From contig JAGOPR010000003.1 of the NCBI GenBank assembly GCA_017991895.1, forward strand, positions 1 to 55,888: DNA of 55,888 nucleotides, in the 5' to 3' direction. A program made the position numbers and the translations under genes. Numbering within the stretch: the first letter of the stretch is position 1; every line of letters begins with the position of its first letter. Below the pieces are notes generated by a model, which saw nothing but the letters and a program-made list of their open reading frames with translations, was not told where the DNA came from and ran no database searches. The DNA comes from Minisyncoccota bacterium. GTDB lineage: Bacteria; Patescibacteriota; Minisyncoccia; Phycocordibacterales; UBA9973. Shown here in pieces: positions 603 to 55,762 of this stretch.

Positions 603-727
603 ATTCCAGCACGACGCGTAAGAGCAAAGATAAAAAAGAAAAATTAAAAGAAACATGCAAAACAAAACACACAAAAGAATTTGAATTTATCTTTACTCTT
701 TTCTCTTTTAATTTTTATCTAATTAAT

Positions 728-2919: not shown

Positions 2920-3489
2920 ATGAATTTTATAAATTCAAATTTTTTCAATAAGAACCTGCAAGCTGAAACCTGCAAGCTGAAACCTGTTCAAGGCGGGTAT
3001 TCGTTTGTTGAAACGATAGTTTATCTTGCACTTTTTGTGACTGTTTCGGTCGTATTGATAGGCAGTCTGTTTAGTATGATGAAGATTTATACTGAAACGA
3101 GAGTGGACAATGATCTACTCGATTCGGCCCATGTATCTATGGAAAGAATGACGCGCGAAATCCGTGGAGCGACGAGCATCGATACTAGTGCAAGTACGCT
3201 AGGTACAAGCCCTGGGGTTTTAAAATTAAATTCAACGACGTCCGGTGGCTCGGCAAAGACCGTTCAGTTCTCGTTGTCATCCGGAGTATTGAAACTTACA
3301 GATAGTACAGACGGTACTGCTAGAGATGTTACTGGGAGTAAAACCTCAGTTACTTCATTAATTTTCAGAAATATTACTACAACAAATGGTAATGCTGTTC
3401 GCATCGAGATCACAATTCAATCAACGCGCTCAGGTTCAGCGAAAACTATAACTTTGTATAATACGGTTGCGCTTCGAGGGTCATATTAA
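2920..3489 (+). CDS. Prepilin-type minor pilin with a long leader
   Basis: VQGG|YSFVETIVYLALFV. The leader contains a 14-nt tandem repeat at 2953-2986. Confidence 0.7.
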   Translation: MNFINSNFFNKNLQAETCKLKPVQGGYSFVETIVYLALFVTVSVVLIGSLFSMMKIYTETRVDNDLLDSAHVSMERMTREIRGATSIDTSASTLGTSPGVLKLNSTTSGGSAKTVQFSLSSGVLKLTDSTDGTARDVTGSKTSVTSLIFRNITTTNGNAVRIEITIQSTRSGSAKTITLYNTVALRGSY

Positions 3490-3496
3490 AAACACC

Positions 3497-5296
3497 ATGG
3501 AACTAACATCAAACATCAAACACCAAACATCAAAGCAAGAACGCGGGGCAGCGATGATAATTGCTCTATTATTTTTTGTCGTATCTTCAGTATTCGTAAC
3601 TAATGGTTTGACAGGACCTACTGCCCGTGAATATCGTACGGCGAATGAGTCCCTAACTTCAAAGCAGGGATATTTTCTTTCAGAATCTGGCGTCGAGGAT
3701 GCATTTTATCGTTTAAAAAACAGTATGACTCTTCCTTCCAGCACGACTATTACACTAAACGGAGGAAGTGCCACAACGATAGTTACTGATCTTGGCGGTG
3801 GGGCTAAACAGATATCAAGCGACGGCGTTGCTGGTGAGAGTAACAGGTCAGTTGATTTGCGTGTTGCTACAGGTGCTGGAATTTCATTTAATTACGGTGT
3901 TCAAGTTGGAGAAGGCGGGCTTGATTTACAAGGCTCTGGTACCGTGATAGGTAATGTGTATGCTAACGGGCCGATTACAGGAGATAGCTCGGGAATTATT
4001 ACTGGTACAGCAACTTCTGCAAACTCACCTGCACTTACGGCAGATCAATCAAATGGATCTGGTACACCGGCAAACAATATTATGTTTGGAAACGCATCAA
4101 GTACGCAAGACATTGCGCAAAGTTTTGAACTTGCGACATCAAGTCCAATCAATAAAATACAACTTTATATAAAGAAAGTAGGTTCTCCGTCTAATGCAAC
4201 TGTAAAAATCATGAATGATGTTTCTGGCTCGCCTGGGACTGTCCAATACGCTTCTGGAACACTAACTGCTTCGACTGTAACAACATCGTATGGATGGATT
4301 GATATTGCTTTAACATCAAGTCCAGTGCTTTCAACAGCAACTCCATATTGGATTGTCGTTGATGCTTCAAATTCAACTACAAAATATTATGTTGTCGGTG
4401 CTTCAACGGGGGGCTATGCAAGTGGTATTGCAAAAATTGGTCAATCACCAAGTACTTGGGGGGCAACGACTCCTTCGACTGCGGACTTATTCTTTAAGAT
4501 TTACCTCGGTGGCTTTACTGGTCTTATTCGTGGAAATTCTGGTAGCGTTTGGAACCCGCTTCATATTGGAACGGTTTCGGGAAATGCTTATGCGAATACG
4601 ATAAATTATACAAATGTAACTGGAACAGCCTATTGTACTAGTGGTGGAAATACAACATCAAGCGGTACAGTGACACCATGTACCCCTGCAACTGACCCAA
4701 CGTTTCAACCGTTTCCTATTTCAGATGCAAATATTGCAAGTTGGAAAAGTGACGCAAGTGCAGGTGGAATTATAACAGGAGCATATTCAGTAGGTTGGGC
4801 AGGGGCAACTCTTGGTCCAAAGGAAATAACAGGAAATCTTACAGTTTCGGGTGGAGGAATCCTAACAGTTTCCGGACCGCTCTATGTAAAAGGCAATTTA
4901 ACGTTGAGTGGCGGGGCTGACATTGTTCTTGCTTCAAGTTATGGGACCAATGATGGTGTGATTGTTGTCGACGGGACAATCAGTATTTCTGGAGGAGGGC
5001 ATGCAACAGGTTCAGGTACGACAGGGAGTTACATTATGATTTTAACAACTAATACGAGCCTAAATACCACAACACCAGCAGCTTTGATTTCAGGCGGGGC
5101 AGGTGCTGTTATTGTTTATGCTCCGAATGGACTTGCTAAAATTACAGGGGGAGCTTCACTTAAAGAAATAACGGCATATCAAGTTAAAATTGATGGTGGT
5201 TCAACACTTACCTACGAAACTGGCTTGGCAAATTTGAACTTTTCGAGTGGTCCATCGGGTTCTTACACTGTAAGTGAATGGAAAGAAGGGCAATAA
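3497..5296 (+). CDS. PilX-like minor pilin N-terminus fused to a large Gly/Thr-rich beta-helix-like body (putative pilus-tip/adhesin protein)
   Basis: The ATG at 3497 (MELTSN...) lies after the previous stop. KQERGAAMIIALLFFVV resembles the PilX N-terminus and lacks E+5. Repeats such as GNVYANGPITGD and ITGNLTVSGGGILTVSGPLYVKGNLTLSGG are present. Confidence 0.65.
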   Translation: MELTSNIKHQTSKQERGAAMIIALLFFVVSSVFVTNGLTGPTAREYRTANESLTSKQGYFLSESGVEDAFYRLKNSMTLPSSTTITLNGGSATTIVTDLGGGAKQISSDGVAGESNRSVDLRVATGAGISFNYGVQVGEGGLDLQGSGTVIGNVYANGPITGDSSGIITGTATSANSPALTADQSNGSGTPANNIMFGNASSTQDIAQSFELATSSPINKIQLYIKKVGSPSNATVKIMNDVSGSPGTVQYASGTLTASTVTTSYGWIDIALTSSPVLSTATPYWIVVDASNSTTKYYVVGASTGGYASGIAKIGQSPSTWGATTPSTADLFFKIYLGGFTGLIRGNSGSVWNPLHIGTVSGNAYANTINYTNVTGTAYCTSGGNTTSSGTVTPCTPATDPTFQPFPISDANIASWKSDASAGGIITGAYSVGWAGATLGPKEITGNLTVSGGGILTVSGPLYVKGNLTLSGGADIVLASSYGTNDGVIVVDGTISISGGGHATGSGTTGSYIMILTTNTSLNTTTPAALISGGAGAVIVYAPNGLAKITGGASLKEITAYQVKIDGGSTLTYETGLANLNFSSGPSGSYTVSEWKEGQ

Positions 5297-5373
5297 GGGA
5301 AAACACCAAAAATCAAATATCAAACATTAAAATATGGCCACTTCAAATTTGAAGTTTGGCGTTTTCTTCATCA

Positions 5374-11657: not shown

Positions 11658-12242
11658 CTACATAAAATTTTCTTCCACTTTTATCCAATTCAGATTTTCA
11701 AAGAAGTCTTCAACGTATTGTTTTTTGCCCGAAGGTTGATAGTCGGCAACATAACTATGTTCCCACATATCAAGTGCAAGAATCGGCTTGAGTCCTTGTA
11801 AGTGCCCCAGATGTTGTTCGTCTACCCATTGCATAAGAAGGTGTCCGCTTGCTTTGTCTTGGTAGAGCATTGCCCAGCCGATTCCACGAGTCATTGCCAC
11901 AGCTTTCATTCGCGCAAGAAACACTTCGAAGGAACCCCATTCTTTTTGAATGGCGAGGGCTAAGGCACTTTCTGCCCCAATACCTCGTGCTCCTCCTTCA
12001 AATGATGCGAAGTAGATTTCATGATTACGCATGCCATCATATTCAAATGCGAAACGGCGTTGGAGCTCGCCGAGTTCATATGCCCACTTTTCTGAATCCT
12101 TGGAAAGTTCAGTGATTTGGTTCTGTATGTAATTCGCAAATTTTACATAGCCTGCGTAGAGCTTCAAGTGTTCTTCGATATTTTTTGCAGATATGCCTTT
12201 GAGTTCAGGGATGTTAAATGTTTTTTGTTCGAAATAAGTCAT
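11658..12242 (-). CDS. Fe/Mn superoxide dismutase
   Basis: HLKLYAGY and LALDMWEHSYVADY motifs. The start at 12242 (MTYFEQK) has TATAAT 6 nt upstream. The track's N-terminal extension reads through an inverted repeat. Confidence 0.9.
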   Translation of the reverse strand: MTYFEQKTFNIPELKGISAKNIEEHLKLYAGYVKFANYIQNQITELSKDSEKWAYELGELQRRFAFEYDGMRNHEIYFASFEGGARGIGAESALALAIQKEWGSFEVFLARMKAVAMTRGIGWAMLYQDKASGHLLMQWVDEQHLGHLQGLKPILALDMWEHSYVADYQPSGKKQYVEDFFENLNWIKVEENFM

Positions 12243-12274
12243 ATCACTATTATACGCCCATACGCCGTATACGC

Positions 12275-12352
12275 TATACCCGCACACCAACTTGCTTGAT
12301 GCGCCTAAGGCGCGGAGCAAAGCTCTTTCAAGCAAGTTGGTGTGCGGGTATA
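12275..12352. repeat. Perfect 25-bp inverted repeat with a 28-nt spacer, between the divergent SOD and PLD genes
   Basis: TATACCCGCACACCAACTTGCTTGA (12275-12299) and its exact reverse complement (12328-12352). The spacer holds the mini-hairpin GCGCC-TAA-GGCGC. Confidence 0.95.
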
Positions 12353-12360
12353 ATTCCTCT

Positions 12361-13422
12361 ATGAAAAAACGTGAGCGAATATTGCTTACTAGCTTTCTGC
12401 TCCTAGCATTTTGGGGATTTTCTGGTGCTTATCTTTCTCTTGGATCACAAGCCAAGGATATTTCGAATGAGCACCCAGTAATTGCAGAACTGGTTAGACC
12501 TCCTTCCGATACACCAGTTTCTTACAATCAAGCATTATCACTTTTGACGATGCCAGATGACACAACGGCCTCGATTATTTCTCTTATACAAAATGCAAAG
12601 AAATCGGTTGACCTCACAATTTACACATTAAGTGACAAGAAAATTCAGTCGGCACTCGTTTCAGCAAAAAATCGCGGTGTGGCTGTACGCGTACTGCTAA
12701 ATGCTGGTTGGGAGGGTGTACCCACAAAGAAAAATCAAACAACATTTGATTCACTTTCTAAACAAGGAGTTTCAGTTAAATGGTCACCTGACTATTTTGC
12801 ACTCATGCATCAAAAAACACTTATAGTTGATGGAACTAAGGCGCTTATTATGACGTTTAATTTGGACAGAGCGTACTATAAAACAGGTAGAGATTTTGGA
12901 ATACTTAATTCTGACCCTACGGATATTTCGGCAATTATTGCGAGTTTCAATTCTGACTGGAACGGTGATAACAAAGTTGCAAGTGACGGTAAGGATTTAG
13001 TTTGGAGTCCAGATTCGAGACTTATTCTCGTTTCGCTTATTGAGAGTGCTAAAAACTCGCTAGATATTTATTCCTTGGAGATGGATGAAGATATTATAGA
13101 AGATGCGTTGTCTGATGCTTCCCGAAGAGGAGTAGAGGTGAAAGTTCTAATGAGTATGCAAACATCATGGCTTACTGCTTTTCGTGCGCTTACTGCTTCG
13201 GGTGTAGAGATTCGTACATTCCCTGAAAAAGCACCGCTTTTTATTCACGCAAAAGTAATAATAGCTGATGAAAGTAGGGCTTTTGTGGGTTCAGAGAACT
13301 TTTCCGCCAATTCTTTGGATAATAATCGCGAACTGGGGATAATTTTTACCAAAGCGGATATCATTTCCTCCATTATGAAAACATTCAAATCCGATTGGGC
13401 TAGTGCGACAGTATTTCGTTAG
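12361..13422 (+). CDS. Phospholipase D / cardiolipin-synthase-like protein with an N-terminal membrane anchor
   Basis: Two HKD motifs, HQKTLIVDG and HAKVIIADE...GSENFS. The start MKKRERILLTSFLLLAFW is at 12361, with TATAAT at 12349-12354. Confidence 0.85.
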   Translation: MKKRERILLTSFLLLAFWGFSGAYLSLGSQAKDISNEHPVIAELVRPPSDTPVSYNQALSLLTMPDDTTASIISLIQNAKKSVDLTIYTLSDKKIQSALVSAKNRGVAVRVLLNAGWEGVPTKKNQTTFDSLSKQGVSVKWSPDYFALMHQKTLIVDGTKALIMTFNLDRAYYKTGRDFGILNSDPTDISAIIASFNSDWNGDNKVASDGKDLVWSPDSRLILVSLIESAKNSLDIYSLEMDEDIIEDALSDASRRGVEVKVLMSMQTSWLTAFRALTASGVEIRTFPEKAPLFIHAKVIIADESRAFVGSENFSANSLDNNRELGIIFTKADIISSIMKTFKSDWASATVFR

Positions 13423-20951: not shown

Positions 20952-20980
20952 TTGCAAAAACACCAAGTATTCTGTATAGT
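20952..20980 (+). promoter_or_regulatory. Candidate fusA promoter
   Basis: TTGCAA-N17-TATAGT, about 92 nt upstream of the fusA ATG. Confidence 0.5.
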
Positions 20981-21072
20981 TTTCGCACAAGTAGGACTCG
21001 GTGTCCTCTTTTTTAATAGATTTAACAGTATTTGTGCTAGCACTTAAAGCCAGCACCTAAAGCCTAATTATC

Positions 21073-24519: not shown

Positions 24520-24540
24520 AATGGCCAATTAACGAAGTTT

Positions 24541-24570
24541 TAAAGCGCGGATACCCGCGCTTTAATTTTT
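24541..24570 (+). terminator. Intrinsic terminator
   Basis: AAAGCGCGG-ATAC-CCGCGCTTT followed by AATTTTT. Confidence 0.65.
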
Positions 24571-24650
24571 GCTTATTTGACCCTGTAGTGAATTTTGGTG
24601 AGGCGCCTGCCGGCGCGTACTAAGTACATCATCAAGATCTACTACGGGGT

Positions 24651-24678
24651 TTGACACAGTCTCAAAATCTGATAGTAT
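24651..24678 (+). promoter_or_regulatory. Candidate tuf-S10 operon restart promoter
   Basis: TTGACA-N16-TAGTAT with AATCTGaTAGTAT, the same -10 context as at 34210 and 40256. It is followed by a leader of about 195 nt. Confidence 0.55.
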
Positions 24679-24874
24679 CTTACCCGATAGCTCTCCCCAG
24701 GGCTTTTTTCGTGCCCGAGGGAGACTTTCACTAGAGCTAGTGGCCGTGGCAGAGGACTGGTTTTGTGTCTTCCGCCAGTGCCGCAAACTCAATATTATTA
24801 GTTTTTAATTTAAGCATTTAGTTTCGGGTTAAAGCTATAAGCTAAAACCTATAAGCTATAAGCTAGATAAACAT

Positions 24875-26074
24875 ATGGCAGAGGAATTTAATCGTTCAAA
24901 GCCGCACGTTAACGTTGGTACTATCGGACACGTTGACCACGGCAAAACTACGCTCACAGCAGCGATCCTTACAGTTCTTAACCGTGAGGGAAATGGGTAT
25001 AGTTCAAAGATGAAGGGTGTTGATCAGATTGACAATGCTCCAGAAGAAAAGGCTCGTGGAATCACGATCGCTCTTTCTCACAACGAGTACGAGACTCCAA
25101 ATCGTCACTACGCTCACATTGATGCTCCAGGTCACGCTGACTACATCAAAAACATGATTACTGGTGCTGCTCAAATGGACGGCGCTATTATCGTTGTTGC
25201 AGCTACTGACGGTGTTATGCCACAGACTCGTGAGCACATCCTCCTTGCAAAACAGGTTGGAGTGCCAAAGATTATCGTGTTCCTCAACAAGTGCGACATG
25301 GTTGATGACAAGGATCTTATCGACATGGTTGAAGAAGAAGTTCGTGAACTCCTTACAAAACAAGGTTTTGACGGTGCAGGATGCCCTGTTATCCGTGGTT
25401 CAGGACTCAAAGCTCTTGAATCAGCAGACAACTCTGACGAATGGGCAAAGAAAGTTATCGAGCTCGTAAACGCACTCGATACTTACATCCCTATGCCAGA
25501 GCGTGATCTTGCTAAGCCATTCCTTATGCCAGTTGAAGACATCTTCTCTATCGAAGGACGCGGAACTGTTGTTACAGGCCGTATCGAACGTGGAGTTGTT
25601 AAGGTTGGCGAAGATATCGAAATCGTTGGTATCAAGGACACTGCAAAGACAACAGTTACAGGTATCGAAATGTTTAACAAAAACCTCAAGGAAGGTATGG
25701 CTGGAGACAACGCTGGTATCCTTCTTCGTGGTACAAAGAAAGAAGACATTACACGTGGACAGGTTCTTGCGAAAGTTGGAACAGTTACTCCTCACTCTTC
25801 ATTCGAATGTCAGGTTTACATCTTGAAGAAAGAAGAAGGTGGACGCCACACTCCATTCTTTAAAGGTTACAAGCCACAGTTTTACATTCGTACAACTGAC
25901 GTTACAGGTGATGTAACACTTCCAGAAGGAAAGGAAATGGTTATGCCTGGAGATACAGTAGATCTTAAAGTAAGTCTCGTTACTCCGGTCGCCCTCGAGG
26001 CACAACAGCGTTTTGCTATCCGTGAAGGAGGTAAGACCGTTGGTGCAGGAGTTGTCACTAAGATAATCGCTTAA
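24875..26074 (+). CDS. tuf: Elongation factor Tu
   Basis: [29 protein letters not shown], 399 aa. Confidence 0.98.
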
Positions 26075-26077
26075 CCC

Positions 26078-26155
26078 AGTAAGTAATTAGTAGATAGTAG
26101 TTAGTAGAAGATGCAAATGCACTAGCTACTAACTACTTACTACTATCTACTAACT
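26078..26155. repeat. Inverted pair of 7-nt tandem arrays (TAGTAG-type / CTACTAA-type) in the tuf-rpsJ spacer
   Basis: The left arm is AGTAAGTAATTAGTAGATAGTAGTTAGTAG. The right arm is CTACTAA CTACTTA CTACTAT CTACTAA. Confidence 0.85.
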
Positions 26156-35116: not shown

Positions 35117-35791
35117 ATGAGTAAAGTTGTCCATCCATACGCACATCGCCTAGTAATCCTCCGAGACTGGAAATCTCGCTGGTTTGCTGCACCTAAGAAA
35201 TACAAGGAATATCTTCGTGGAGATGTACTTGTTCGCGACTACCTTGAAAAGCGTATGCGTGGTCTATATGTTTCATCTATTGAAATTGAGCGCTCACCAA
35301 AGTCTACTCGCGTTATCATCCGCACTTCACGCCCAGGTATGGTTATTGGACGCTCAGGTGAAGGATCAGTAAAACTCAAGAATGATATCGTGGCTTTCAT
35401 GAAGCGCAAAAACGTTACAGTATCAGAAGAACTTAAGCTCGACATCGTAGAAATCCAGAATCCTGATGCTGATGCACACATCGTTGCTTACTCTGTTGCT
35501 GAAGCTCTCGAAAAGCGTCTTCCATTCCGCCGTGTCATGAAGCAAGCTGTTGAGAAAGTTATCGCTACTCGTGGAGTAGAAGGAGTAAAGATTCTTCTTT
35601 CAGGACGTCTAGGTGGCGCTGAAATCGCTCGTATTGAAGAACAAAAGCGTGGCTCAATCCCTCTTCAGACTTTCCGAGCAGACGTTGATTACACACGTGA
35701 AAAAGCACACATGACTTACGGTGATATCGGAATCAAAGTGTGGATTTACCGTGGAGAAATATTTGAAACTAAGACCGCACCTACAAAATAA
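35117..35791 (+). CDS. rpsC: 30S ribosomal protein S3
   Basis: VHPYAHRL...GMVIGRSGEG...LSGRLGGAEIAR. Confidence 0.96.
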   Translation: MSKVVHPYAHRLVILRDWKSRWFAAPKKYKEYLRGDVLVRDYLEKRMRGLYVSSIEIERSPKSTRVIIRTSRPGMVIGRSGEGSVKLKNDIVAFMKRKNVTVSEELKLDIVEIQNPDADAHIVAYSVAEALEKRLPFRRVMKQAVEKVIATRGVEGVKILLSGRLGGAEIARIEEQKRGSIPLQTFRADVDYTREKAHMTYGDIGIKVWIYRGEIFETKTAPTK

Positions 35792-35820
35792 CTAATAGTT
35801 ACTAACTACTTACTAATCCC

Positions 35821-36237
35821 ATGTTATTCCCGAAAAAAATTAAATATCGAAAATGGCAAACTGGACGAAAGAACATGCTAAATTCCACACCTGATACTCG
35901 TGGAACAACTCTTTCATACGGATCATTTGGTCTCAAAGCAGAGACTGCTGGACGCATTCGTAGCAACCAGCTTGAGTCTGCACGTAAGGCTATGGCTCGC
36001 CAAATGACAAAGACTGCAAAGTTTTGGATTCGTATTTTCCCAGACCGACCATACACGGCTAAGCCACCAGAAGTGGGAATGGGTAAGGGTAAAGGTGATC
36101 CACAGGGATTTTGTTTTGAAATTCGCCCAGGACGCCTAATTTTCGAAATCGACGGACTCGACGAAAAGGTTGCCCGTGAAGCTCTTCGAAAAGCTGGTAC
36201 AAAATTGCCAGTTAAAACACGAGTTGTTGCGAGATAA
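35821..36237 (+). CDS. rplP: 50S ribosomal protein L16
   Basis: MLFPKKIKYRKWQTGR... Confidence 0.96.
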   Translation: MLFPKKIKYRKWQTGRKNMLNSTPDTRGTTLSYGSFGLKAETAGRIRSNQLESARKAMARQMTKTAKFWIRIFPDRPYTAKPPEVGMGKGKGDPQGFCFEIRPGRLIFEIDGLDEKVAREALRKAGTKLPVKTRVVAR

Positions 36238-37117: not shown

Positions 37118-37206
37118 AGAAAGTAGAAAATAGTAAGTAGAAAATAGGAGCCCAAATACAAACGCATTCACTACTAACTACTTTCTACTAACTACTAACT
37201 AATCAC
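37118..37206. repeat. Inverted pair of 7-8-nt tandem arrays in the rplN-rplX spacer
   Basis: Left arm AGAAAGTAGAAAATAGTAAGTAGAAAATAGG. Right arm CACTACTAACTACTTTCTACTAACTACTAACTAATCAC, ending at the rplX ATG. Confidence 0.85.
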
Positions 37207-37512
37207 ATGAACATCAAAAAAGGAGACATCGTAATAGTTCGCGTTGGAAAGGATAAGGGAAAGAAAGGGAAAGTCCTTGCTGTTTCTCCTAAGCTTGATT
37301 CTGTACTCGTTGAGGGTATGAATATGAAGAAGCGTCATATGAAGCCACGTGGACGTGACCAGAAAGGACAGACTATCGAAATTGCTCATCCTATAACACG
37401 TTCAAACGTTTCATTGGTTGATCCTAAAAAGGGGACTGCGACACGCTTGGGCTCAAAGACGGTAGCAGGAAAGAAGGTTCGAATCGCAAGAAAGAGCGGA
37501 CAAGAGATTTAA
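37207..37512 (+). CDS. rplX: 50S ribosomal protein L24
   Basis: IKKGDIVIVRVGKDKGKKGKV (KOW motif). Confidence 0.94.
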   Translation: MNIKKGDIVIVRVGKDKGKKGKVLAVSPKLDSVLVEGMNMKKRHMKPRGRDQKGQTIEIAHPITRSNVSLVDPKKGTATRLGSKTVAGKKVRIARKSGQEI

Positions 37513-38868: not shown

Positions 38869-39561
38869 ATGAAAGAAAAATATCTAATTCAAAAAAAGTG
38901 GGGCGAGACTCCACTAGAAGCTTTGGAGCGGTTACGCGTCGATGAAAAAATCGGTGCGGATGTTCCGATGACGTATGCGGGTCGACTTGATCCAGCAGCG
39001 GAGGGTTTACTTATCATTCTCACGGGAGAAGAGTGTAAAAAGAAGGATGAATACAGTGCGCTTTCAAAAACATACGTAGCTGAAATTATTTTGGGTGTTT
39101 CGACAGATAGCTACGATCTGCTTGGAATACCAAAGGTAGAATTAAGAATTAAGAATTTAGAATCAAGTATGGAAGAAATAAAAAAATACTTGGATATCAA
39201 TATCGGAAAACAAATGCAGGAATATCCGCACTACTCATCAAAAAATATTGATACCGGAGTACTTCCTCTTCCGCATGAAGTTGAACTTTTTGAGTACAAA
39301 AATCTTGAGATAGGGGAGCGAACCCAAGATGAAGTTTCAGAGAGAGTAAAAAATCTTACAGAATTAGTAACAGGCGATTTTAGACAAGCGAAAATTTCCG
39401 AAGCATGGAAGACCATTTCCATCCCTGAAAAACTACAAACTATAAAAGTTGAATTGAAAGTTTCGAGTGGATTTTATATCCGACAGCTTGCCGAAGATCT
39501 TGGGAAAGCTCTTTGTTGTGGCGCATGTCTCTATTCTCTTGTTCGTACTGAAATAGAATAG
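38869..39561 (+). CDS. truB: tRNA pseudouridine synthase, short TruB-like
   Basis: KKWGETPLEALERLR...YAGRLDPAAEGLLIILTGEECKK catalytic Asp motif. Confidence 0.75.
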   Translation: MKEKYLIQKKWGETPLEALERLRVDEKIGADVPMTYAGRLDPAAEGLLIILTGEECKKKDEYSALSKTYVAEIILGVSTDSYDLLGIPKVELRIKNLESSMEEIKKYLDINIGKQMQEYPHYSSKNIDTGVLPLPHEVELFEYKNLEIGERTQDEVSERVKNLTELVTGDFRQAKISEAWKTISIPEKLQTIKVELKVSSGFYIRQLAEDLGKALCCGACLYSLVRTEIE

Positions 39562-41541: not shown

Positions 41542-41582
41542 AATAGAGTAATGACCAAAGAGAAAAGTTCAAAGAAAAACCT

Positions 41583-42631: not shown

Positions 42632-43066
42632 ATGCAAACACACAACGTACAACGAAATACAAAACTTAAGAAACATGTTCAGCTTGGACGTGGAGGACGA
42701 CACGGTAAAACTTCAGGACGTGGAGGCAAGGGTCTTACAGCACGCGCTGGTTTTAAGCGCCGACCAGCTCTTCGTGACGCTATTAAGAAAATTCCAAAAC
42801 TTCGTGGATATAAATTCCACTCTATCGAGACTGCATACTACCCAGTAAATCTTGAAGCTCTAGAAAAGTCTTTCAAAGCAGGAGATACTGTTACTCTAAA
42901 GACTCTTATCGAAAATAAGGTATTTCGTCTTAAGGGTGCAAAAAATCCACGCATAAAGATTCTCGCTCGTGGGATACTCTCGAAGAAACTTACTGTTAAA
43001 GGATGTGCTGTTTCAGAAACTGCGAAAACTGCGATTGAAAAGGCAGGAGGAACAGTAGAAAAGTAA
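42632..43066 (+). CDS. rplO: 50S ribosomal protein L15
   Basis: GRGGRHGKTSGRGGKG. It starts 4 nt after rpsE, leaving no room for L30. Confidence 0.95.
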   Translation: MQTHNVQRNTKLKKHVQLGRGGRHGKTSGRGGKGLTARAGFKRRPALRDAIKKIPKLRGYKFHSIETAYYPVNLEALEKSFKAGDTVTLKTLIENKVFRLKGAKNPRIKILARGILSKKLTVKGCAVSETAKTAIEKAGGTVEK

Positions 43067-43147
43067 ATACTAAATAGAAAATAGTAAATAAAAATACAGA
43101 TTCTATTTAAAATTATTTACGATTTACTAATAACTATTTACTAAGAA

Positions 43148-44419: not shown

Positions 44420-44452
44420 GAGAGCAAAAAGCAAAGATAAAAATTAAAAGAA

Positions 44453-44643
44453 AACACAAAAGAACAGTCGCCGCTAATCACTAAGTCTGCTCAGCTGAAT
44501 ACAGCCTACGCGGACTAAGTGTTAGCGGCCCCGCCTCATGGTCGGCGAGCCGACATCACTGCGGCTTCACTGTGTAATAAAAAACCTCCATAAAATGGAG
44601 GTTTTTTATTCTCAGCGACTACCGGCGACTGTTCTTTTGTGTT
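44453..44643. repeat. 191-nt element bounded by perfect 21-bp inverted repeats, with three internal hairpins including a terminator
   Basis: AACACAAAAGAACAGTCGCCG (44453-44473) and CGGCGACTGTTCTTTTGTGTT (44623-44643). The GC-rich interior contrasts with AT-rich flanks. Confidence 0.8.
44579..44607. terminator. Intrinsic terminator inside the secY-adk element
   Basis: AAAAAACCTCCAT-AAA-ATGGAGGTTTTTT. Confidence 0.75.
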
Positions 44644-44655
44644 AGGATACGACGT

Positions 44656-45246
44656 ATGGAAGCTAAAACATATGTATTTTTTGGAATTGTAGGGGCCGGC
44701 AAAGGCACACAGGTTGAGCTTTTGAAGAAGCTCCTTGTTGACCGAGATCCTAGTAGAAAGATCGTTTACGCATATCCGGGGAGCGAATATCGCGCTCTTA
44801 CAGCAGGATCAAGCTATACAGGTGCCCTAGTAAAAGAAAAACTTGAGAGAGGAGAACTTCAACCAGATTTTCTAACTATTACGGTTTTTAACGATATTCT
44901 TGTCCGTGAGCTTACGAGTGATTGTCATTTTATAGCAGATGGATATCCGCGCACTCTCGTGCAAGAGGAGGCTTTCATTTCTGCTATGGAGTTCTATAAA
45001 CGCGGAGCGGTGGAAATTGTGTACATTGAAGTTACGAAGGACGAAGTAATTGAGCGCATGAAGCTTCGTGGACGTTCTGATGATACAGACGAAGGCATTG
45101 CCCGCCGATTCCAAGAATATGAAAATCATGTTATCCCTGCTATGAAACGACTCGAGGAACGTAAAGGATGTGTTCTTCACACTATTAATGGGGCGCAATC
45201 AATTGAGGCGGTACACGCTGATATTGTAAAAGCACTGGGATTCTAA
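44656..45246 (+). CDS. adk: Adenylate kinase
   Basis: FFGIVGAGKGTQ P-loop, DGYPRT, and RGRSDD lid. TAGGAT lies 7 nt before the ATG. Confidence 0.9.
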   Translation: MEAKTYVFFGIVGAGKGTQVELLKKLLVDRDPSRKIVYAYPGSEYRALTAGSSYTGALVKEKLERGELQPDFLTITVFNDILVRELTSDCHFIADGYPRTLVQEEAFISAMEFYKRGAVEIVYIEVTKDEVIERMKLRGRSDDTDEGIARRFQEYENHVIPAMKRLEERKGCVLHTINGAQSIEAVHADIVKALGF

Positions 45247-47447: not shown

Positions 47448-47483
47448 TACCCTTTCTGTTAGTATCTTTGCATTAGTATTTAA

Positions 47484-47522
47484 TTAAGCTTTAAAGCTGT
47501 AAAGCTACAAAGCTATAAAGCT
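47484..47522 (+). repeat. Five phased 7-8-mers ending in AAGCT, 4 nt upstream of the ndk ATG
   Basis: TTAAGCT TTAAAGCT GTAAAGCT ACAAAGCT ATAAAGCT. Confidence 0.9.
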
Positions 47523-47526
47523 TTCC

Positions 47527-47997
47527 ATGGCAACACACGAACGTTCACTCATTATCATCAAGCCTGACGCAATTCAGCGCAATCTTTTCGGTGAAATTGT
47601 AGGCCGTCTTGAGAAGAAGGGTCTAAAAATAATCGGAACAAAGATGATGAATCTTCACGATACTCTTATCGAGGAACATTATGCACATATTAAGGACAAA
47701 CCTTTCTTTCCGGGGATTCGCGACTTTATGAAGGCTACTCCTGTTGTTGTGATGGCAGTAGAGGGAATAAATGCCGTGTCTGCGGTACGACTTCTTGTGG
47801 GTCCTACAAAGGCGTGGGAGGCAAACGCAGGTACTATTCGTGGCGATTTCTCACTTTCTACTCAGTCAAATCTCGTTCATGCTTCTGATACGGTAGAAGC
47901 TGGTATCGCGGAGATCACTCGCTTCTTTAAGCCAGAGGAAATCTTCTCATATGACCTTGCCGATGTTGATTTTGTTTACGCGGAACACAAAAAGTAG
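47527..47997 (+). CDS. ndk: Nucleoside diphosphate kinase
   Basis: ERSLIIIKPDA...NLVHASD active-site His region. Confidence 0.93.
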   Translation: MATHERSLIIIKPDAIQRNLFGEIVGRLEKKGLKIIGTKMMNLHDTLIEEHYAHIKDKPFFPGIRDFMKATPVVVMAVEGINAVSAVRLLVGPTKAWEANAGTIRGDFSLSTQSNLVHASDTVEAGIAEITRFFKPEEIFSYDLADVDFVYAEHKK

Positions 47998-48024
47998 TAA
48001 ATACTAAATAGGAAATGGTAAATA

Positions 48025-48062
48025 GCCACAAAAAAATCTCCTTTGGGAGATTTTTTTGTGGC
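48025..48062. terminator. Bidirectional intrinsic terminator
   Basis: GCCACAAAAAAATCTCC-TTTG-GGAGATTTTTTTGTGGC. Confidence 0.8.
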
Positions 48063-48096
48063 TGATGGTGTATGAGTATTTATTTGTCAATCTTGC

Positions 48097-48342
48097 TCAA
48101 ATTTTTTTGCGTGGTTTTTTGTAATTCACAGTTGCGTGTTTAGATACGAGGCGTATACTTCGTGTAGGATTATTTGCAATGTTACCTAGAACACTTTGTG
48201 TACGGGAATCTCCGTTGGAATCTGCTTTGGCACTTTCTACAAGATACCCACTTGGCCTCTGGCTAGGGTAACACGAAGCAAATAGTCCTAAAGAGTGTCC
48301 CTCATGCGAAAGCTTGAGGGAATTTCTTTTTTTATTTTGCAT
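48097..48342 (-). CDS. Hypothetical 81-aa basic protein
   Basis: An ORF preceded by AGGAGGG-AAA-ATG, the only canonical SD seen in the window. No family recognised. Confidence 0.45.
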   Translation of the reverse strand: MQNKKRNSLKLSHEGHSLGLFASCYPSQRPSGYLVESAKADSNGDSRTQSVLGNIANNPTRSIRLVSKHATVNYKKPRKKI

Positions 48343-54465: not shown

Positions 54466-54505
54466 TTTAAGCTAAAAAGCTTTACAGCTTTGACGCTTGA
54501 AAGCT
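54466..54505 (+). repeat. Five phased 8-mers ending in (A/C)GCT, ending 6 nt before the tmRNA 5' end
   Basis: TTTAAGCT AAAAAGCT TTACAGCT TTGACGCT TGAAAGCT. Confidence 0.9.
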
Positions 54506-54511
54506 TCCTAC

Positions 54512-54910
54512 GGGGATGAAATGAATAGACAAGAGGTTTCATTTCACGCACGCATGCCGAGTATGGAAACAATCTCGTAAAACTTTTTCCAATTCCCAAA
54601 TGCAATCGCATCTGGAAAATCAATTACTTCTCCGTATTTTGCGCAGAAGGACTTTGATTTCGCGTTCGCCTAAACAGGCCCGCGCGATGTCTTAACTGCC
54701 GATTCCTAATACGTAGTTAGGGCATAATAAACTTAGGATAGGGGACAGAGTTGCTTCACTTTGAACCCAAAACCCACGAAGCTCGGAGTAAATGTGTTTT
54801 GTTGATTTCAAAGCATTTATTCTTAAATCCGCAAGGAATCAAAATTAACTAAGCATGTAGAAGTTCATGGAATCACTTTTTGCACGGCGGTTCGCTACCG
54901 CCCATCTCCA
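54512..54910 (+). ncRNA. ssrA: tmRNA (SsrA)
   Basis: The 5' GGGGATG pairs with the 3' CATCTCC, including a G3:U pair. T-arm GGCGG-TTCGCTA-CCGCC and conserved CTAAGCATGTAG are present. The tag frame runs from GCA at 54602 to TAA at 54671-54673 (...AQKDFDFAFA). The gene lies next to smpB. CCA is not encoded. Confidence 0.9.
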
Positions 54911-54950
54911 CACAAAAGAAAAACACCCAATCGGGTGTTTTTCTTTTGTG
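54911..54950. terminator. Bidirectional terminator after ssrA
   Basis: CACAAAAGAAAAACACCC-AATC-GGGTGTTTTTCTTTTGTG. The helix continues into the tmRNA acceptor strand. Confidence 0.8.
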
Positions 54951-55640: not shown

Positions 55641-55662
55641 GTGCGCGGGTATACCCGCGCAC
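55641..55662. repeat. Perfect 22-nt palindrome
   Basis: GTGCGCGGGTA|TACCCGCGCAC. Its core is related to the hairpin at 24542-24563. Confidence 0.9.
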
Positions 55663-55762
55663 CAAATTTAATGAGGCACCTTCGGTGCGGGACGAAGTTC
55701 TTTCATTAAAATTGGTGTTCGGGTATAATGCGCGAGCAATTAGTTTTTTAATTTTTAAAAAT

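Follow-up and report, generated by a model that had tools for sequence, protein, structure and literature searches.

Heptanucleotides are the commonest long simple sequence repeats (SSRs) of bacteria and have been recognised since 1990, beginning with the short tandemly repeated repetitive (STRR) sequences; their function and the reason for a unit of seven are both unexplained. We describe here arrays of tandem 7-8-nt units in the spacers of a 55,888-nt stretch of DNA (the window: positions 1 to 55,888 of contig JAGOPR010000003.1) from a Minisyncoccota bacterium of the candidate phyla radiation (CPR), among them arrays that end directly upstream of the start codons of tuf, ndk and fusA. In the literature we found no description of heptamer arrays in CPR bacteria. 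Being small and free of Shine-Dalgarno (SD) signals, this genome shows the phenomenon cleanly: the arrays stand in spacers that conservation indicates to be transcribed, beside essential and highly expressed genes, and with strict polarity at starts and stops.

Direct repeats of the heptamer TAACTGA are known from marine Beggiatoaceae and from some Cyanobacteria and Bacteroidetes (MacGregor 2015, PMC4679880). They form 2-6 tandem copies in forward orientation a few nucleotides before starts, often in ribosomal-protein operons (fusA, rplC and others); the genes concerned are without ribosome-binding sites, S1, Csp and CsrA have been proposed as binders, and translational control has been proposed for a function that is unknown (PMC4679880). 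The direct heptamers of the window likewise run forward and end 3-10 nt before the ATG, and canonical ribosome-binding sites are likewise rare. The TAACTGA system has one dominant word at ~169 sites and a single inverted pair, whereas the window, from a CPR lineage, has several AT-rich word families, half of its arrays paired, and arrays after stops as well. No TAACTGA array occurs in the window, where the words are AAGCTAT, ACTAACT, AGTAAAT, AACATCA, TTTATCT and others. The ribosomal-protein operons of Acidobacteriaceae (L035, L055, L060, L067, L069, L071) carry heptad arrays in nearly every intercistronic spacer, often as hairpins; the arms beside starts mostly resemble GAGCTGA/GAACTGA and lead into (A/T)TTT-ATG, and their core is similar to the Beggiatoa TAACTGA.

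The heptameric SSRs GGGAATC and GGGGAYT of Xanthomonas and Nostoc are intergenic, and 70-75 convergent inverted pairs of Xanthomonas GGGAATC are able to form stem-loops (Rehm et al. 2015, PMC4692102). Their coding strand is G-rich 0-50 bp after stops, including arrays that overlap the stop, and C-rich 0-50 bp before starts (PMC4692102). The arrays of the window and of other CPR loci share both the frequent convergent inverted pairs and the stop/start polarity. The Xanthomonas and Nostoc repeats are, however, G-rich, form G-quadruplexes and belong to hosts that use SD sequences, whereas the window units are AT-rich, have no G runs or G-quadruplex potential, and lie in a genome without SD. For Nostoc heptamers near start codons, reporter effects with no defined mechanism have been found (bioRxiv 10.1101/2022.06.06.494920). 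Start-abutting heptamers, inverted pairs and strand polarity had thus all been published (PMC4679880, PMC4692102), and the arrays are not of an undescribed kind, as a first-pass annotation of the window had supposed.

According to the summaries in PMC4679880 and PMC4692102, Mrazek, Guo and Shah (2007) found heptanucleotides to be the commonest of the long, non-coding SSRs with units of 5-11 nt and proposed an origin by slippage. The tracts of the window are similar in exceeding composition-matched chance, in the dominance of heptamers and in being non-coding; the class itself is defined statistically and, as far as those summaries go, is silent on dispersed imperfect copies, hairpin pairing and start-codon adjacency, all of which are seen here. 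The STRR heptamers of heterocystous cyanobacteria, ascribed to Mazel et al. in 1990, reportedly fall into several families per genome, are dispersed in intergenic DNA and have no known function. Several dispersed intergenic families are found in the window too; STRR sequences differ in being restricted to cyanobacteria, in their GC-richer words and in a definition that does not include start/stop adjacency. Repetitive extragenic palindromes and bacterial interspersed mosaic elements (REP/BIME) are short imperfect palindromes dispersed in transcribed operon spacers; they have one genome-wide consensus hairpin, are not tandem-periodic, and are associated with RAYT transposases. The window elements are also dispersed in transcribed operon spacers, and their 5' arms are GTAG-rich, but the arms are heptad arrays of several unrelated words, which argues against a single consensus.

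Based on these comparisons, the arrays belong to a kind that is already described, though functionally unexplained, and are most likely the CPR counterpart of heptanucleotide long SSRs and STRR-type repeats. On balance we think it probable that they are repeat modules made by slippage and spread by copying, that they are retained only in spacers that are transcribed, and only when oriented so that G stays out of the mRNA close to the start, and that any action they have is generic, through spacer length or structure.

Period-7 arrays in the window

Statistics were drawn from the window, 34 CPR loci, 17 Acidobacteria loci and metagenome contigs. Tandem arrays were called with Tandem Repeats Finder (TRF), and genes by our own simple calls on a codon-usage score, which gave 6.5 kb of intergenic DNA in the window. 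This DNA contains five ungapped lag-7 self-match segments with a score of at least 10, where dinucleotide-preserving shuffles lead one to expect 0.04 (a ~100-fold excess); at lags 2-6, 9, 11 and 12 there are no segments with this score, and the autocorrelation peaks at lags 7, 8, 14 and 21. The shuffled-composition control for which the first-pass annotation had called was thus run, and the periodicity survives it, specific to a unit of seven and sometimes eight.

Low complexity and a G+C content of 37% might allow AT-rich spacers of this type to become periodic by chance, and two of the candidate features, the rplR array and a 'hairpin' upstream of pilC, are indeed weak. Against this, 0/200 dinucleotide shuffles reach the observed lag-7 count, neighbouring lags have no excess, and arrays recur in independent assemblies; the likelihood of a chance origin is practically nil, and the shuffle control rules it out. 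The spacers are identical in the independent assembly L081, and the arrays are also present in the assembled contigs that we examined from X1-X4, the wastewater metagenome runs that contain the window; since the spacers of an independent assembly are identical, the arrays are not assembly artefacts. Beyond the window, the intergenic DNA of the CPR loci has 26 arrays at lag 7 and at most 7 at any other lag, that of the Acidobacteria loci has 33 lag-7 arrays, and across the window and both sets of loci arrays occur at 0.27-0.61 per kb of intergenic versus 0.02-0.03 per kb of coding DNA. That the arrays are non-coding and not CRISPR, as the first-pass annotation held, is borne out. The window arrays are as follows.

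686..727, + strand: TTTATCT-type G-free array reaching the pilC ATG (728); TRF 686-709, period 7
3505..3534, + strand: AACATCA x4 G-free array; TRF score 53, period 7; ~19 nt before ATG 3554, the probable true start of a pilin-like gene
5307..5332, + strand: ATCAAA-type heptad array between the stop of the pilin cluster (5296) and tpiA; TRF period 7, 3.7 copies
12251-12279: array in what had been annotated as the SOD promoter; TRF period 8
21039..21064, + strand: 13-nt direct repeat x2, AGCACYTAAAGCC, in the fusA 5' untranslated region (UTR), 8 nt before the ATG; TRF period 13, 2 copies
24830..24871, + strand: AAGCTAT-type array of ~5 units in the tuf 5' UTR; TRF 24832-24865, period 7, 4.9 copies; lag-7 score 15; ends 3-9 nt before ATG 24875
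26078..26155, + strand: tuf-rpsJ intercistronic hairpin with TAGTAGA-type 5' arm, loop and CTACTAA-type 3' arm (inverted repeats I8 and I21); TRF 26121-26155, period 7
35791..35817, + strand: solo ACTAACT-type array called by TRF; fills the rpsC-rplP spacer and ends 3 nt before the ATG
37118..37201, + strand: rplN-rplX hairpin element (I22) with a purine-rich 5' arm (37118-37147) and a C-rich 3' arm (37170-37201, TRF period 7) that ends 5 nt before the ATG
43062..43142, + strand: rplO-secY spacer arrays (I10); AGTAAAT-type 5' array overlapping the rplO stop (TRF 43062-43090, period 7) and ATTTACT-type 3' array ending 5 nt before the secY ATG
47484..47526, + strand: AAAGCTNT octads, ~5 units, in the ndk 5' UTR; TRF 47486-47522, period 8, 4.6 copies; ends 4 nt before ATG 47527
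47995..48025, + strand: AGTAAAT-type array in the ndk 3' UTR, overlapping the ndk stop codon and preceding a terminator hairpin; TRF period 7
54466..54506, + strand: AAGCT-core array before the transfer-messenger RNA (tmRNA), filling the gap from the smpB stop (54448) to the mature tmRNA 5' end (54512); TRF 54476-54506, period 8

The array sequences quoted in the first-pass annotation are present in the window just where it placed them, and several arrays come in addition to its list (3505-3534, 26078-26155, 35791-35817, 37118-37201, 43062-43142, 47995-48025 and 54466-54506). What it had taken for an AAGCT heptad upstream of fusA is in fact a 13-mer in two copies with an AAAGCC core, and its NNNAAAG x4 array before rplR is missed by TRF and has a lag-7 score below 8. 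Nor is the pattern confined to tuf, ndk and fusA: the arrays make up a few dispersed families, with near-identical copies elsewhere. The proposed position upstream of starts describes half of the pattern. It holds for the arrays that abut an ATG, ending 3-10 nt 5' of it at tuf, ndk, fusA, rpsJ, rplP, rplX and secY, but arrays also begin at or after stops, or precede a terminator as in the ndk 3' UTR. The arrays have practical consequences as well: short-read contigs break at them (at 37171-37203 and 43062-43091), and they mislead start-codon calling, as in the over-extended open reading frame (ORF) at 3467.

Position of the arrays in transcribed spacers

Three of the start-proximal arrays have a recognisable promoter upstream.

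20973-20980: fusA extended -10, TGTATAGT, upstream of the repeat and accompanied by a leader hairpin
24651..24678, + strand: tuf promoter; -35 TTGACA at 24651-24656, spacing N16, extended -10 TGATAGTAT at 24670-24678, with TAGTAT
47457-47465: ndk extended -10, TGTTAGTAT, conserved and upstream of the array

The tuf array lies ~150 nt downstream of TTGACA-N16-TAGTAT, and both boxes are invariant in a four-way alignment of the window with the relatives L083, L084 and L082. At ndk and fusA a conserved extended -10 is likewise found upstream of the array; L082 keeps the fusA -10 and the leader hairpin, while the repeat itself is missing there. Conserved promoters upstream of the arrays place the tuf, ndk and fusA arrays in 5' UTRs, and judged by this arrangement of the sequence they would be part of the transcribed leader. 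The other arrays occupy intercistronic spacers, 3' UTRs and the smpB-tmRNA spacer, so that all kinds of transcribed spacer are represented.

One could instead regard the arrays as DNA-level elements, either promoters (repeated -10/-35-like boxes giving leaderless transcripts) or operator arrays for a transcription factor of translation genes. A TATAAA stands 7 nt before the ndk ATG, adk offers the example TGTGTTAGGAT-N7-ATG, and the AAGCT arrays precede tuf, ndk and ssrA, all of them genes of translation or growth rate. But the conserved extended -10 upstream of the tuf, ndk and fusA arrays persists in relatives that have no array, many arrays lie inside ribosomal-protein operons or in 3' UTRs, a period of 7-8 is unlike the helical repeat of DNA, and the words differ among close relatives. 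We consider such a role very improbable, and its promoter or leaderless form is rejected on the conserved upstream promoters.

Some features of these leaders were observed in passing. The tuf 5' leader (24685-24810) is a conserved structured RNA immediately after the promoter, without a match to an Rfam family; four relatives share its blocks CGATAGCTCTCCCCAG, TTTTTTCGTGCC and GGCCGTGGCA..GGACTGGTTTTGTGTC without change, separated by inserts that vary, and many Paceibacteria have a hairpin upstream of tuf whose loop is UUCUCGYGC-like. In the window, tmRNA (54512-54913, 97.5 bits) is the sole Rfam match at gathering score, and an E-value search of 24520-24880, the tuf leader plus array, gave matches at chance level only. 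In the fusA leader (20973-21016), TGTATAGT is followed by a hairpin and U-run, AGGACTCGGTGTCCTCTTTTTT, conserved in L082, which looks like an intrinsic terminator or attenuator. The adk gene appears to be leaderless: in the window (44633-44658) and in the secY-adk spacers of L207 and L211, a terminator is followed at once by TGTGTTAGGAT, which is conserved among relatives and stands 7 nt upstream of the ATG.

Inverted pairs, folding and strand polarity

Reverse-complement partners (at least 12/14 matches, within 130 nt) were found for 13 of the 26 CPR arrays and 19 of the 33 Acidobacteria arrays, while reverse-only and complement-only controls gave 4-6 in the CPR and 0 in the Acidobacteria. 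The tuf-rpsJ hairpin reaches from 4 nt past the tuf stop to 7 nt before the rpsJ ATG, its arms are 83-95% complementary, and its minimum free energy (MFE) is -32.7 kcal/mol (z -7 to -8.5). The rplN-rplX element has the same layout and an MFE z of -3.1 to -3.6, the rplO-secY arms are 83% complementary with a weak fold (z -1.4), and 47995-48100 folds with z -6.5, terminator included. The supposed pilC hairpin at 628-720, formed by the array and an apparent partner at 628-651, folds no better than shuffles (z -0.4). That antisense strands fold better in 12/12 CPR spacers might have indicated selection on G-U wobble at the RNA level; shuffles do equally well, however, and the effect is one of composition, given the A/C-rich sense strand.

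AGCT is a palindrome, which makes the AAGCT arrays complementary to themselves; each has a moderate fold of its own (z -2.3 to -2.6), and the predicted unpaired probability at positions -20..-4 is 0.27-0.32. The suggestion in the first-pass annotation that the arrays are unstructured leaders therefore fails for them, as this region is predicted to be mostly paired. The arrays at 3505, 35791, rplR and pilC are predicted to be unstructured.

The strand of the arrays depends on which gene end they face. Among start-proximal CPR arrays, read on the mRNA-sense strand, C exceeds G in 17, G exceeds C in 2 and 2 are tied (81 C and 33 G in total); stop-proximal arrays have a purine fraction of 0.67 and 88 G vs 32 C. 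In ordinary -45..-1 regions G and C are about equal. In the Acidobacteria loci the start-side polarity was not seen. We also considered the stops in all three frames of stop-proximal arms as a possible feature, and judged them a by-product of purine-plus-U units at period 7; by our rough estimate, a random A/G/U heptad contains a stop in ~60% of cases.

Turnover and dispersed copies

By Tuf, the window is closest to metagenome-assembled genomes of Paceibacteria/Parcubacteria, the best species representative being 85% identical; closer strains, with 95-99% identity, are found in metagenomes. These relatives show rapid replacement at orthologous sites. At the tuf site, L083 (99% Tuf identity) and L082 (95%) have no array and share a short non-repetitive hairpin, whereas L084 (96%) has another heptad hairpin, in which AGGGNNN arms face CCCTNNN arms; all three end in AAACAT-ATG, as does the window. 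The odd middle unit of the window array, AAAACCT, matches the non-repetitive ancestral GAAACCTAAAG, which suggests that the tuf array grew in place by duplication on both sides. At the ndk site, relatives with 98% identical Ndk have an AACTTT array, those at 90% have none, and one at 89% has a run of AATT heptads in degenerate form. L082 has a different hairpin in its tuf-rpsJ spacer, made of AAGTCT words that recur in the rpsJ-rplC spacer, and in more distant relatives (L005, L013, L014) the tuf-rpsJ spacer is 17-25 nt long and has no hairpin. This site-by-site turnover means that words are common within a genome and different between genomes, and that the arrays are dispensable for the genes downstream. 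Slippage-generated spacers, one of the possibilities raised in the first-pass annotation, fit with birth in situ and fast turnover at orthologous sites. Array-bearing and array-free states of the same site in near-identical relatives are, moreover, a natural 'deletion series' for effects on initiation, coupling and mRNA processing.

Within the window, copies of arrays are found at separate loci: 26111-26155 and 37156-37200 are 84% identical over the loop and 3' arm (D10), 35789-35823 and 37175-37209 are 83% identical through the ATG, including CTAATCMCATG (D18), and 43062-43090 and 47996-48024 are 93% identical (D8). In the source metagenome (X1/X2), at least six other contigs, with depths of 11-26x as in this genome, carry 32-40-nt copies of the 37170-37204 array with at most 3 differences, and the summed word depth of this array is 272, compared to 14-18 in its flanks. 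At least four of the copies lead without interruption into reading frames that start with ATG, a TAGTAT -10 box precedes one copy, and one contig has a full copy of the rplN-rplX hairpin with a loop 12 nt shorter. Contigs whose depth is equal hold three or more additional copies of the imperfect ndk AAGCT array, among them an exact one arranged as an inverted pair. As exact copies of imperfect arrays cannot come from independent slippage, arrays have been copied between loci.

Proposed origin and persistence of the arrays

With the reality of the arrays, their heptad bias, transcribed position, polarity, inverted pairing, turnover and multi-copy dispersal established, the reading that we prefer can be put as follows. 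The arrays would represent a few families of short (~30-90 nt) dispersed elements built of tandem 7-8-nt units, created and resized in place by slipped-strand duplication and copied between spacers by recombination or some other form of mobility. They would persist solely in transcribed non-coding spacers, that is in 5' UTRs, intra-operon gaps between stop and start, 3' UTRs and the leader before the tmRNA. Selection would filter their orientation, so that the G-poor A/C/U strand is in the mRNA before a start and the complementary strand, rich in purines and stop codons, follows an upstream stop; where both arms are present, they would form a stem-loop bridging stop and start. The arrays would then be interchangeable spacer modules of an SD-less genome and not regulators of specific genes, and any effect on expression would presumably be generic, by way of spacer length or structure, start-site accessibility, translational coupling or processing.

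Several observations weigh against this account. No unit-number variants, such as characterise the SSRs of phase-variable contingency loci, were seen in the assembled contigs of X1-X4, and relatives differ by replacement of whole arrays and not in unit number. The copying of exact imperfect arrays between loci requires a mechanism that our analysis could not identify. In a search for RNA of the window organism, the best share of tuf words in metatranscriptome runs was at most 0.07. Finally, positive selection of the arrays as functional modules could account equally well for their strict polarity and for their return at one site in separate lineages.

Translation initiation without Shine-Dalgarno sequences

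The motifs GGAG, GAGG and AGGA occur at -20..-4 in 4/68 genes versus 13/68 in a control window, in agreement with the first-pass annotation that this genome does not use SD sequences. Of the 527 ATG starts in the CPR loci, 63% have T and 4% have G immediately before the ATG (position -1), and many window genes read (A/T)ATAT-ATG or AAACAT-ATG; the bias at -1 may be a start-context signal of SD-less genomes.

It is conceivable that the arrays are a dedicated module for SD-free translation. The 30S subunit would use the G-poor array as a single-stranded track on which to land or stand by, and oligonucleotide-binding (OB)-fold proteins (S1 or Csp, for instance), whose footprint is ~7 nt, would bind this track. 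The hairpin from stop to start would pass terminating ribosomes to the next start codon, and the arrays would have been selected as enhancers or coupling devices in place of SD sequences. Besides the absence of SD motifs from starts, the strong G-poor polarity beside start codons is consistent with this view, as are copies that include the last bases before the ATG (CTAATCMC-ATG) and the four or more other copies that abut ATGs. The hairpins extend from at most 4 nt past a stop to 5-7 nt before a start, a hairpin followed by a short A-rich tract recurs before the tuf ATG in relatives with different sequences, and an equivalent proposal has been made for the TAACTGA repeats (PMC4679880). However, close relatives express the same essential genes with neither array nor hairpin (tuf-rpsJ in L005, L013 and L014; ndk in L207-L210), some arrays stand upstream of terminators in 3' UTRs, pairing and not a single strand is predicted for the AAGCT arrays, and no common start-upstream motif is enriched across the CPR loci once composition is controlled. 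One array, furthermore, precedes ssrA, whose RNA is untranslated, so that a purely translational role cannot cover all copies. We thus regard this explanation as unlikely, although it deserves to be taken seriously. A universal start-proximal motif, UAACU or AAGCU, was also tried and abandoned, as the GCTAA enrichment vanished after excluding upstream stop codons and controlling for composition.

A bolder proposal, which we hold to be rather doubtful, is that the arrays are portable 'stop-to-start' cassettes of SD-less CPR bacteria. The G-poor arm and the last bases before the ATG would make up a transferable initiation region, the cistron upstream would be capped by the arm that is purine-rich and saturated with stops, and the stem would serve either to pass ribosomes along or as the mark of a processing site. 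A dedicated factor that reads 7 nt, for example a pentamer of the PF05635 type, would make or move the cassettes. If true, this would also show why bacterial SSRs favour units of seven, a puzzle now 35 years old.

A possible dedicated partner protein

A related idea is that a dedicated partner reading 7-nt units makes, moves or reads the arrays; candidates would be a PF05635 pentameric four-helix bundle ('23S rRNA intervening-sequence protein', Avd-like), a RAYT or another nucleic-acid-binding protein, and the window arrays would be solo or orphan arms of cassettes. Each genome reuses a few words at many loci, and other genomes have other words; co-evolution with a genome-encoded factor would fit this pattern. 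L128 came up by chance when metagenome contigs were scanned with a 16-mer conserved in the tuf leader; its PF05635 gene (E 1.8e-37) is flanked by TAGGGTG x7 and CCCTACA x5 arrays, and the same layout recurs at Microcystis and Nostoc loci (L212-L221), with copy numbers that differ by strain. On the other hand, no PF05635 homologue is found among the small ORFs of the window, nor among six-frame ORFs of at least 70 aa in the window and the examined loci except L128. Several word families in one genome would also demand several specificities or a tolerant binder, and the association is seen here for cyanobacteria only. We therefore find a dedicated partner improbable, and prefer to regard the arrays as slippage-made modules spread by copying.

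The PF05635 cassettes are of interest in themselves. In Microcystis (L212-L215), Nostoc (L220-L221) and L128, the gene has TAGGGTG arrays upstream and CCCTACA/CCCCACA arrays downstream, and the downstream array of the Microcystis locus has ~5, 9 or 12 units in different assemblies. A gene bracketed by inverted heptamer arrays is thus real in cyanobacterial loci, and no such gene was found in the window or the examined CPR loci. The 16-mer scan of metagenome contigs otherwise returned 120 chance matches, none with tuf downstream.

Other repeats in the window

One further dispersed element is A-rich and purine-rich and sits directly after a stop codon at each of three places.

621..653, + strand: family D5, with copies at 44421-44453 (85% identical) and 41545-41577 (79%, the rplR array mentioned above)

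A heptad array of AGAATTA x4 (39138-39167) lies in frame within a 230-aa ORF (38869-39561) and ends just before an internal ATG. The N-terminus of this ORF was read as TruB-like and the array reads ELRIKNLE; the ORF may be two genes, or one gene that tolerates the insertion of an array.

Relatives lack the 33-nt terminal inverted repeat (44453-44485 / 44611-44643) found in the 236-nt secY-adk spacer of the window. An 80-nt palindromic element, which begins TATACCCGCRCACCAA and ends GGGTATAAT, is present in two copies that are 76% identical (12275-12354 and 55650-55729). The first copy falls in the gap 11658-12335(-) / 12292-13422(+), the 'SOD promoter', and the second ~0.7 kb downstream of the tmRNA gene; this palindromic family is distinct from the heptad arrays.

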